4,507 bases of DNA, taken from IMG/VR virus record IMGVR_UViG_2660238573_000008; one strand, written 5' to 3'. This DNA comes from a virus (taxonomy: Duplodnaviria; Heunggongvirae; Uroviricota; Caudoviricetes). A program made the translations under genes and the position numbers. A model generated the notes under the pieces. It did no database searches. It was given only the letters and a program-made list of their open reading frames with translations, and was not told where the DNA came from. Shown here in pieces: positions 747 through 3,618 of this stretch; positions within the stretch are counted from its first letter, which is position 1; every line of letters begins with the position of its first letter.

Positions 747-962
747 TTACTCTCCCCGTGCAACCTTACGCTTGTCTTCTTTAATCTTGAAATAAAGGTT
801 TGTCAGGTACGTCAGCAAGCCAAATACCAGACTACCCAGCACACCGATTGCAGCCCACTGTGACGGAGTTACTTTATCGAGTAACTGCAATGCCCAGAAA
901 CCAGCATTACCAGCCGATGTGCCATAGGCGATACCTGTTGTTAACTTATCCATTGATTTCAT
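747..962 (-). CDS. essQ: Class II holin (pinholin), S21-like, 71 aa
   Basis: Translation [26 protein letters not shown]...[36 protein letters not shown] closely matches my recollection of phage 21 S / EssD-EssQ holins: two transmembrane segments, a charged C-terminus and an MKSM dual-start motif. RBS GGTGAGGA upstream of the ATG at 962. Confidence 0.9.
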
Positions 963-1410: not shown

Positions 1411-1433
1411 AAAAAACCCGCCTGAGCGGGTTT
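1411..1433. terminator. Bidirectional intrinsic terminator
   Basis: A-run (1411-1416), stem CCCGC (1417-1421), loop CTGA, stem GCGGG (1426-1430), then TTT. On the minus strand the hairpin is followed by TTTTTT, so it is stronger for leftward transcription (cspB side) than for rightward transcription from the zinc-ribbon ORF. Confidence 0.6.
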
Positions 1434-1714
1434 AATATTGTGGTACTTTTTGTGGGAGTCATCCACTTACGCACTTTGTTTTGCTATGCCAGCAGTTAGC
1501 TTCTGCTGTAAAACTATTCATGCAGCAAACCTGCACTTCACCACAATGGTTAGCATACTTTTCCTGATTAAGTTATTGCCAAATATGCTGGCCATTGTTT
1601 CATGTATTGGACCTCCTTACTCTTTATTAAAGAGATCCAATATTCACCACTCTGTCTGTATCTCCACTCAGGCATCAGCCTTCTTCGTTATCGTATACAG
1701 ACAAACTATGAATT

Positions 1715-1930
1715 TTAATCAGTAATTATGACATTTGCTGCTGCAGGACCTTTAGCACCACTCTCTACAGAGAAGGTAACCTTTTGACCTTCAAATAAGG
1801 TTCGATAATTATCATTCTGAATCGCAGAAAAATGCACAAACACATCTTTACTACCATCAACAGGAGAAATAAAGCCAAAACCTTTATCAGCGTTAAACCA
1901 TTTTACTAAACCAGTCATTTTATTTGACAT
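1715..1930 (-). CDS. cspB: Cold-shock protein CspB (CspA family), 70 aa
   Basis: Translation [71 protein letters not shown] carries the RNP1 (KGFGFI) and RNP2 (VFVHF) motifs and matches my recollection of E. coli CspB. RBS AAGGA upstream of the ATG at 1930. Confidence 0.93.
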
Positions 1931-2091
1931 TCTACATTCCTTAACTTGAGCCTTTCGGCATAAATGGCTTGTATAACAGAAACGACTTCGTACTTAATTG
2001 GAGAGACTCAAAGAAGGAATAAGTGAATAACACCTGAAATGAGAACTGCTTTAGTAAACTACTTCGTATATCGTCTGTTCTTCAAACCGAC
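1931..2091 (-). promoter_or_regulatory. Long cspB 5' leader (about 161 nt) with a cold-box-like element near its 5' end
   Basis: Minus-strand sequence GGTTTGAAGAACAGA (plus 2074-2088) resembles the cspA cold box region GGTTTGACGTACAGA. The leader length follows from the predicted promoter position; long leaders are typical of cold-inducible csp genes. Confidence 0.5.
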
Positions 2092-2497: not shown

Positions 2498-2587
2498 ATG
2501 AATAAACCCGTCTGTCTTGATGACTGGTTGATTGGCTTTAAAAGCTTATGCTGTACTTTGACCTTAATAGCTCTGCTAATAATATAA
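2498..2587 (+). CDS. Candidate small hydrophobic peptide, 29 aa
   Basis: ATG at 2498 with GGAG 7 nt upstream; translation [29 protein letters not shown] has a hydrophobic C-terminal half. No homology check is possible here, so this is speculative. Confidence 0.3.
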
Positions 2588-2735
2588 TAAGCAGACTCAT
2601 TGTATCTATGGACATTGTACTGGAAGAAAGCATTTTAAACATCAGGCAAAAAACAAAGTCACCCGATAAATAATAAGTAAACTAACATGAATCCCGTAAT
2701 GAGATTCAACATCTCTATTACCCTATTTAAAGCAC

Positions 2736-2760
2736 AAAAACCCGCTCATCAGCGGGTTTT
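2736..2760. terminator. Bidirectional intrinsic terminator, candidate tR' for the late promoter
   Basis: AAAAA, stem CCCGCT (2741-2746), loop CATC, stem AGCGGG (2751-2756), TTTT, with T-runs on both strands. It lies about 40-60 nt downstream of the predicted late promoter start on the minus strand. Confidence 0.65.
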
Positions 2761-2805
2761 CTACTTTTTCTTAACTTCGGGTATACAAAGCCCATCGTTG
2801 AAAAA

Positions 2806-2834
2806 ATTTTATCCATATTTTTTGAAAAATGCAA
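2806..2834 (-). promoter_or_regulatory. Near-consensus sigma70 promoter just downstream of quuQ, candidate late promoter pR'
   Basis: On the minus strand: -35 TTGCAT (plus 2829-2834), exact 17-nt spacer, -10 TAAAAT (plus 2806-2811). It sits about 30 bp after the quuQ stop and fires toward the terminator at 2736-2760 and the lysis genes. Confidence 0.55.
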
Positions 2835-2865
2835 GCATCACGTCGCCATCTTCGGCGAAAATCAC

Positions 2866-3618
2866 TTATCTCGTCACCTTTCTCAATTGTGCTTCAGCGT
2901 AAGATTCCTCCTGCCAGCACTTTGTAACCAGTTTATCAATGACATTTGCATATCCTTTATACCACTGATAATCACTCAGGTCCGGTACCAGCTTCTGGAC
3001 ATGATGCCGCGCCAGTGTGGTTGGTAAACGACTAAACCGTTTTCCATTGCAACGCCCACAAATCTTATAAACAGGTGTGCCATGAAGCCGGGTCCTTTTT
3101 TCATCCAAGACAATACCTTTACCCTTACACCCTCTGCACGCTGTGCTGACTTCTCCCTTACCATGGCAATGCTGACATAGTTCCTTCACCCACTCTTCTT
3201 TGATAACAGATTCCCCGCTTCTGGAGTGTTTCACCACTTCGCGCAATACATTATGAAATCCAGTACCAGCACAATGCTCACAACGAGCCTTACTTGCCGC
3301 AGACCTGGAATAATCAGCAAAGGCAAAATTCACAAGGTAAGGAATAATCTGTAGCCGGGTTTCTTCACTCAATTTATTCAATGTCGGGTTATCCAGTGCC
3401 ATCGCGTAATTGAGCAGACCTTCAATCGCAAACTGAGGATCCTGAACACCAACTTTTGCCAGGAATAAGGCAAACCCAAGCGGTGCTTTCGACTGCACCA
3501 TCCCCTGCGCAGCCATCACATCCGTAATCGTTAAACCACCAGAGCCTGTCGCCGGTGCGTCATCACTCAATTTTGGAGATTTTGGGGAGTAATATTTTGG
3601 TAAGGCTTCAAGGTTCAT
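2866..3618 (-). CDS. quuQ: Late-gene antitermination protein Q (phage 82 type), 250 aa
   Basis: 250-aa ORF with RBS GGAG 7 nt upstream of the ATG at 3618. The sequence carries four CxxC motifs (CEHCAGTG, CQHCHGKG, CRGCKGKG, CGRCNGKR). I recognise the N-terminal region and overall length as Q82-like antiterminator. Position directly upstream of the promoter/terminator module fits. Confidence 0.88.
   Translation of the reverse strand: MNLEALPKYYSPKSPKLSDDAPATGSGGLTITDVMAAQGMVQSKAPLGFALFLAKVGVQDPQFAIEGLLNYAMALDNPTLNKLSEETRLQIIPYLVNFAFADYSRSAASKARCEHCAGTGFHNVLREVVKHSRSGESVIKEEWVKELCQHCHGKGEVSTACRGCKGKGIVLDEKRTRLHGTPVYKICGRCNGKRFSRLPTTLARHHVQKLVPDLSDYQWYKGYANVIDKLVTKCWQEESYAEAQLRKVTR

Follow-up and report, generated by a model that had tools for sequence, protein, structure and literature searches.

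A putative lambda-type late regulatory cassette downstream of quuQ in a Qin-type lambdoid prophage

Signals in the interval downstream of quuQ

The window analysed here, a stretch of 4,507 nucleotides (nt) from a member of the Caudoviricetes (IMG/VR record IMGVR_UViG_2660238573_000008), is a segment of a Qin-type lambdoid prophage. Our subject is the short interval just beyond quuQ (ydfT; 2866–3618, minus strand), the gene of a lambda-family Q antiterminator of 250 amino acids (aa) that ends in the stop codon TAA at 2868–2866. There we find a candidate late promoter, pR', with a pause element and a terminator, tR'. Along the minus strand the order is ydfU (DUF968), quuQ, the cassette region, ynfS and cspF, cspB, ynfU, essQ and ydfR; ynfS, cspF and ynfU lie on the opposite strand. 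Positions 2440–2900 are 100% identical to Escherichia coli 2013C-4974 and 92% identical to prophage Qin of E. coli K-12, and the region is matched in 1,944 of 5,426 complete E. coli genomes.

What signals does the interval contain? On the minus strand a -35 hexamer, TTGCAT (2829–2834), whose first base lies 31 nt after the quuQ stop, is followed by a spacer of exactly 17 nt, TTTTCAAAAAATATGGA (2812–2828), and a -10 hexamer, TAAAAT (2806–2811). Six nucleotides past the -10 stands AACGATGGG (2791–2799), the decisive feature and one that the initial annotation had passed over; it comprises the start A2799, the pause element AACGAT (+1 to +6) and a discriminator-like GGG triplet. The initial annotation had placed TTGCAT, 17 nt and TAAAAT about 30 bp after the quuQ stop, and so they are. 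Its description of the promoter as near-consensus was overstated: TTGCAT agrees with TTGACA at 3/6 positions and TAAAAT with TATAAT at 5/6. Because the hexamers match at only 8/12, a consensus scan did not list this promoter. The composite TTGCAT-N17-TAAAAT-N6-AACGATGGG occurs once in the window and in none of 200 dinucleotide-preserving shuffles of it, even with three mismatches allowed. In lambda the pause signal has been defined experimentally as AACGAT at +1 to +6 plus GGG (PMC4005639). By transfer from the K-12 copy, sigma-70-dependent pausing is predicted here at +17/+18 (2782–2783).

The lambda Q-binding element (QBE) sits between the -35 and the -10 (PMC9388147). In the window TTTCAAA (2827–2821), together with TGG (2815–2813) near the -10, is a candidate Q-binding element by virtue of its conservation and of a position like that of the lambda QBE and the phi80 site. 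The annotated phi80 site occupies spacer positions 2–8, where TTTCAAA also lies, and TGG beside the -10 is common to all relatives. The inverted repeat at 2858–2843, which comes after the Q stop and before the -35, was rejected as a feature; relatives vary there without compensation.

The putative intrinsic terminator tR' occupies 2732–2760 (minus strand). Its stem extends from 2760 to 2737 around a GC core (2756–2741, the part given in the initial annotation), with the loop GAUG and a U-rich tail; the strand reads AAAACCCGCT-GATG-AGCGGGTTTT, then T-G-T-G-C-TTT. The hairpin spans +40 to +63 from A2799, in keeping with the earlier placement 40–60 nt past the start. The predicted terminated RNA, the counterpart of lambda 6S RNA, is 68 nt long (2732–2799, minus strand) and would end at C2732. 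Its predicted fold has a free energy of -22 kcal/mol (z = -4.3; 0/200 shuffles as good). The consensus scan flagged the hairpin as a terminator on the plus strand only; it is unlisted on the minus strand because the scan's greedy stem absorbs the T-run. The record of phage SfV carries a putative rho-independent terminator at the same place.

Two other candidates were considered for this leader and rejected. A permissive Rfam search over the region returned no match reaching its gathering score; the only match, Phe_leader (2731–2824, minus strand), reached 25.2 bits where its family requires 55 (E = 0.49), and the generic terminator drives it. A leader-peptide attenuator was dismissed since the 35-aa open reading frame (ORF) begins upstream of the transcription start and is unconserved. 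At a related locus, L061, the terminator downstream of Q is degraded (GAACCCGCCATCAAGTAGGTATTTT, fold only -11.5 kcal/mol), which makes that locus a natural candidate for constitutive read-through or for a decaying prophage.

Relatives of the cassette and transcription of the K-12 copy

To which family of antiterminators does QuuQ belong? Lambda Q is the type of PF03589, while Q21 falls in PF06530 and Q82 in PF06323 (PMC9388147). QuuQ matches PF03589 with E = 1.5e-53; a Pfam search with it gave neither PF06530 nor PF06323, the one further match being a sub-threshold DnaJ zinc finger. In a search of the PDB the only antiterminator matches were lambda Q chains (7ubm_Q, E = 1.1e-37), and no similarity to the solved Q21 structures was found. 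QuuQ conserves the N-terminal ~50 residues that form the nozzle in lambda Q, G39 and the C-terminal L..VTR. It is full length, and 98% identical to the Q proteins of SfV and mEp460. The initial annotation had implied a non-lambda Q type, and on these matches that reading has to be withdrawn.

QuuQ differs from lambda Q in its zinc-ribbon arm, which carries an insertion of roughly 43 aa with two extra CxxC pairs (residues about 118–160; window 3139–3267, minus strand). The arm of lambda Q touches both the Q-binding site and sigma region 4. The insertion is longer still in phi80 Q and most relatives, and QuuQ belongs with phi80 Q to a long-arm subgroup.

A Q cassette has been defined as a Q gene, PR', a sigma-dependent pause element, a terminator and the downstream genes (PMC9388147). 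Set against lambda pR' (TTGACT-17-TAAATT-6-AACGATGGG), the window (TTGCAT-17-TAAAAT-6-AACGATGGG) has the same layout of -35, 17 nt, -10 and 6 nt, an identical sequence at +1 to +9 and a Q of the same family, PF03589. Further features in common are a pause at a distance of 16–17 nt from the start, a short RNA that is terminated and constitutive, and lysis genes downstream. They differ in the -35 (TTGACT in lambda, TTGCAT here), in the presumed Q-binding spacer (ATTGAAT against TTTCAAA), in the TTGACT-like element just upstream of the pause element, which lambda has and the window lacks, and in the leader, which is 194 nt in lambda 6S RNA and 67–68 nt here.

P22 (P-late/t-late, gene 23) and phi80 (pR' and its terminator, gene 17) likewise pair a lambda-family Q with an annotated late promoter, and their records annotate the Q site and terminators as well. 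Phi80 also has the TTGCAT -35 and the long-arm Q. Both phages differ from the window in their spacer (Q-binding) sequences, and their Q proteins are 34–41% identical to QuuQ; the phi80 pause element is AACGCT, 7 nt after the -10. A common plan can be read in lambda, P22, phi80, Evi, a Klebsiella phage and YeP1: a -35, 16–17 nt, TAnnnT, 6–7 nt and a pause element (AACGAT, AACGCT or AAGGAT) followed by GG or GGG. A first pattern, applied to 80 species loci, required TTG; it was too strict and missed many cassettes, and was relaxed. With the relaxed pattern 88 genome and phage loci were examined and the layout was present in 53; about 50 bacterial species show it. Because the terminators of P22, phi80, Evi and YeP1 lie within about 30–90 nt of the start, a short leader is normal in the lambda family and lambda 6S RNA is the exception. 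A short leader therefore does not mark a non-lambda Q, as the initial annotation had supposed.

Nearer relatives are found in SfV, mEp460, 2H10 and the Stx2c and Stx2k phages, whose Q proteins are 96–98% identical to QuuQ and whose promoter, pause element and distance to the terminator match. Their terminator hairpins and everything downstream differ; the downstream differences reflect a mosaic joint just past the terminator. The homology that the window shares with SfV, mEp460 and the Stx2c and Stx2k phages stops near position 2733, just beyond the terminator, and the sequence past it varies from locus to locus, which is the pattern expected of a mosaic module boundary. In an Stx2c converting phage (L095, 6820–10698) the Q-pR'-tR' module stands 2.6 kb upstream of stx2cA with tRNA genes between, and in phiSTEC1575-Stx2k (L085, 546–4885) it stands upstream of tRNA genes and stx2k.

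Which columns of the module are held constant? Conservation was measured as minor-allele cells per column over 44 distinct sequences from the 80 IMG/VR loci whose Q is 97–100% identical to QuuQ. The most conserved columns are those of the GGG triplet (0.00) and AACGAT (0.33), and the -35 hexamer is next (1.0). The spacer stands at 2.4 (TTTTCAAAAAA is near-invariant within it), the last 30 nt of quuQ at 4.2, the interval +10 to +34 at 6.9 and -6 to -1 at 8.7. The -10 hexamer also reaches 4.2, only at its two least critical positions: relatives have TAAAAT, TAAGAT or TAGGAT, and T1, A2, A5 and T6 are kept. These relatives retain the promoter and AACGATGGG, but the terminator hairpin, placed at the same distance throughout, has at least six different sequences. 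In an alignment of 25 distinct leaders 90% of the cells of the terminator helix are paired and 5/9 pairs have changed on both sides (CCCGC/GCGGG, CCUCGC/GCGGGG, CCGC/GCGG and CUCGC/GCGAG are examples); sliding the partners by 1–3 columns reduces the paired cells to 25–55%.

Is the interval transcribed as its signals predict? Between the -35 and +22 the K-12 copy does not differ from the window, and the first A of its AACGAT lies at 1,642,422 (minus strand) of NC_000913.3. The nearest published start, from differential RNA sequencing (dRNA-seq), is at exactly 1,640,446 (minus strand) of NC_000913.2 (Sun et al. 2021, PMC7876045, Supplementary Data 1), which by coordinate conversion falls on that A. 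A minus-strand start near 2800, as had been expected, is thereby mapped in the K-12 copy at the equivalent of A2799. Sigma-70-affinity RNET-seq in delta-greAB cells gives minus-strand pauses at 1,640,429 (score 6881) and 1,640,430 (5783) (PMC7876045), 17 and 16 nt from the start; both recur in other sheets of the same file. The former ranks 12th of all sites in its sheet and fourth in the list of class G1d, the class that the authors liken to lambda pR' (PMC7876045). The K-12 pause is among the strongest sigma-70-dependent pauses in the genome. The same RNET-seq table holds a stronger sigma-70 pause cluster in the DLP12 prophage region, 11–15 nt from a start at 576,452 (plus strand, NC_000913.2) that is possibly the DLP12 late promoter.

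The 3' end is equally well placed. Term-seq reports one at 1,642,356 (minus strand, NC_000913.3), classed as 'orphan', with 103,591 reads in LB at OD 0.4 and 55,368 at OD 2.0 (Adams et al. 2021, PMC7815308, Supplementary file 1). This is the C of GGGUUUUGUGC, 8 nt past the GC stem, the equivalent of C2732 in the window. The three mapped positions of start, pause and 3' end agree with one another and delimit an RNA of 67 nt in K-12; the RNA of the window is predicted at 68 nt because its T-run has one more T. We conclude that in the K-12 copy transcription initiates at the predicted A, pauses in a sigma-70-dependent manner and terminates past the hairpin. The same Term-seq tables list no plus-strand 3' end at the hairpin. 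The terminator had been described as bidirectional; its plus-strand half agrees with the scan, a match in the letters only, and finds no counterpart in these tables.

Probable function of the cassette and alternative explanations

We consider it very probable that the interval serves a Qin-type lambdoid prophage as its late regulatory cassette and follows the lambda plan. The pR'/tR' pair proposed in the initial annotation gains support because the geometry and the nine-nucleotide pause sequence are those of lambda, QuuQ is of the lambda Q family, the promoter and pause element are conserved, the terminator covaries, and the start, pause and 3' end have been mapped in K-12.

How might the cassette work? 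RNA polymerase with sigma-70 would initiate at A2799 on the minus strand from TTGCAT-17-TAAAAT. Sigma region 2 would then bind again, to the -10-like AACGAT (with GGG next to it) in the non-template strand, and hold the enzyme in a scrunched pause with an RNA of 17–18 nt. Left to itself the polymerase would escape, terminate at the hairpin 2760–2737 and release the 68-nt RNA with its end near C2732. QuuQ, if present, would bind the promoter spacer (TTTCAAA...TGG), load onto the paused complex and form a nozzle of the lambda type on the RNA exit channel. The modified polymerase would ignore tR' and later terminators, and continue antisense through cspF and ynfS and then into cspB and the lysis genes essQ, ydfR and rrrQ. 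The binding and loading of Q and the Q-dependent read-through are inferred from family membership and from the lambda structures.

Several observations weigh against this interpretation. The -35 matches the consensus poorly, at 3/6. No good -35-like element lies beside the pause element; lambda has TTGACT there, which aids Q in repositioning sigma region 4. The late transcript must cross two opposite genes, ynfS and cspF, before it reaches the lysis genes, and at least one further terminator stands between tR' and those genes. The in vivo data were all obtained on the K-12 copy; this is 92% identical overall, has a T-run one T shorter and differs from the window at +24. To place the published start we took 1,642,422 to be 1,640,446 in NC_000913.2, with an assumed offset of +1,976 between the versions, the sum of their differences up to this position. 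In the literature searched we found no experiment on QuuQ binding or on Q-dependent read-through of tR', nor any published description of the quuQ/Qin late promoter. The differences from lambda that could matter are the weak -35, the lack of a TTGACT-like element at the pause, the longer arm of Q, the terminator only ~40 nt from the start and the two opposite genes to be crossed.

Might the cassette be intact in sequence and yet a relic, in which the promoter fires and the RNA terminates but the switch never opens, either since QuuQ is never made or since the prophage is defective? The equivalent region of K-12 belongs to the cryptic prophage Qin, the late operon holds cold-shock cargo in both orientations, and the window is uninformative on immunity or the early region. 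Set against this are the full-length QuuQ, nearly identical to the Q proteins of SfV and mEp460, the visible constraint on the pause element and promoter, and the viable phage 2H10, which has the same order of Q, cspF, cspB, holin and lysin as the window. We regard a relic as somewhat doubtful. A chance pair of hexamers, with a hairpin that simply serves as terminator to two convergent units, cspF-ynfS on the plus strand and the quuQ operon on the minus strand, is by comparison hardly credible. Such an origin would fit the consensus scan, which called no promoter and flagged the hairpin on the plus strand, and it would fit the A-tract that makes the hairpin symmetric, found only in relatives with csp cargo downstream (the Qin/2H10 type). 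But a terminator persists at this place in relatives that lack cspF, the composite pattern was absent from all 200 shuffles and the hairpin has no plus-strand 3' end in the K-12 tables. Mapping in K-12 has located the start, the pause and the minus-strand 3' end, and the first two of these effectively refute a chance origin.

A further possibility concerns the short RNA itself, which might be a stand-alone, constitutive regulatory small RNA, its part in antitermination being secondary or lost. The precedent is StxS of the Stx1 and Stx2a phages, which is likewise produced constitutively, by termination of a transcript from a late promoter under Q control; it demonstrates that terminated pR' transcripts can be Hfq-dependent regulators, and its authors suggest that the same could hold generally (PMC7547250). 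Term-seq finds the K-12 RNA in abundance and places it in the 'orphan' class, and the RNA has the typical shape of a small RNA, with a stem at the 5' end and a terminator hairpin and U-tail at the 3' end. StxS differs, however, in arising from a predicted transcript of 258 nt that is processed to 74 nt, and the Hfq binding and trans-acting function that have been demonstrated are features of StxS. No Hfq-binding or target data for the short pR' RNA were found in the literature searched. Conservation within the module is lowest in the middle of the RNA (+10 to +40), and relatives swap the terminator freely; both observations argue against a conserved seed. We therefore judge a stand-alone small RNA improbable; a small-RNA activity would in any case be compatible with an antitermination role.

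What follows if the interval is a late regulatory cassette of the lambda type? A function is assigned to an unannotated stretch of a widespread prophage family of E. coli and Shigella, and three observations in K-12 are explained together: an 'orphan' start, a sigma-70 pause that is among the strongest, and a 3' end that is both abundant and orphan. These public data, previously unassigned, already support the cassette. In Stx2c and Stx2k phages the same module stands at the head of the late operon and would gate toxin expression. It also supplies a second natural set of lambda-type Q, pause and terminator on which the generality of the lambda Q loading model can be tested, and it is useful for that purpose because its presumed Q site, its longer Q arm and its terminator ~40 nt from the start set it apart from lambda. 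This is an ordinary lambda-type late cassette, and the textbook picture is unchanged.

A predicted 5' leader stem and the downstream genes

The first nucleotides of the leader can themselves pair. In most relatives the first 4–5 transcribed nucleotides pair with their complement 13–28 nt downstream. In the window the predicted 5'-terminal stem (2773–2799, minus strand) joins AACG to CGUU, here AGUU, with an inner UGGG/CCCG helix; it contains one mismatch, G4 against A24. In the 25 close relatives the 5' helix is 96% paired. Among cassettes with a lambda-family Q, pause element and partner covary in at least six compensatory types: AACGA/UCGUU (lambda, P22 and many others), AACGG/CCGUU, AAUGA/UCAUU, AACAA/UUGUU, AACA/UGUU, AUAA/UUAU, AAGGA/UUCUU and AGAAU/AUUCU. 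Besides the window, loci with the stem include L003 (lambda), L087 (P22), L093, L113, L117, L123, L125 and L162. In a permutation test each element was set against the downstream part of loci that have a different element. The mean stem was 4.65 bp, against 3.83 ± 0.21 when permuted, and none of 2000 permutations reached the observed value, with relatedness uncorrected. The evidence for the stem comes from a few compensatory types, because most loci share AACGAT and relatedness is uncorrected.

What role might this stem play? A description of it, including the 5' hairpin of lambda 6S RNA, was not found in the literature searched. We offer, as a tentative and rather unlikely idea, that the leader is more than a switch, through its 5' stem, through a 67–68-nt RNA that acts in trans like StxS, or through both. 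This RNA, abundant in K-12, is shared with the Stx2c and Stx2k phages. As a guess, the stem might protect the 5' end of the late RNA or tune escape from the pause.

Beyond the terminator the cargo genes are interposed before the late genes proper. The holin gene essQ (747–962, minus strand; Pfam PF04971, phage 21 holin S, E = 1.1e-33) is the first lysis gene of the late operon and lies past cspF and ynfS (antisense), cspB and ynfU; ydfR follows on the same strand, and in K-12 the RrrQ lysozyme is next. The 5' untranslated region of cspB (1652–2091, minus strand) matches the cspA thermoregulator family, RF01766, with 156.7 bits (E = 5e-42), and because of this match the late operon holds an independently regulated cold-shock gene.

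A second hairpin, AAACCCGCTCAGGCGGGTTT (window 1414–1433), lies between ynfU (plus strand) and cspB (minus strand). It closely resembles that of tR' and has T-runs on both strands; K-12 Term-seq gives a plus-strand 3' end there, at 1,641,060. To reach the holin gene a Q-modified polymerase would have to pass this hairpin. Term-seq of K-12 (LB, OD 2.0) reports in addition a second minus-strand 3' end, at 1,642,188, which corresponds to window position about 2564. Located about 170 nt beyond tR', this end is antisense to the small-protein gene ynfS (2498–2587, plus strand) and near a hairpin at 2594–2573. Read-through, processing or a separate antisense RNA may account for it.

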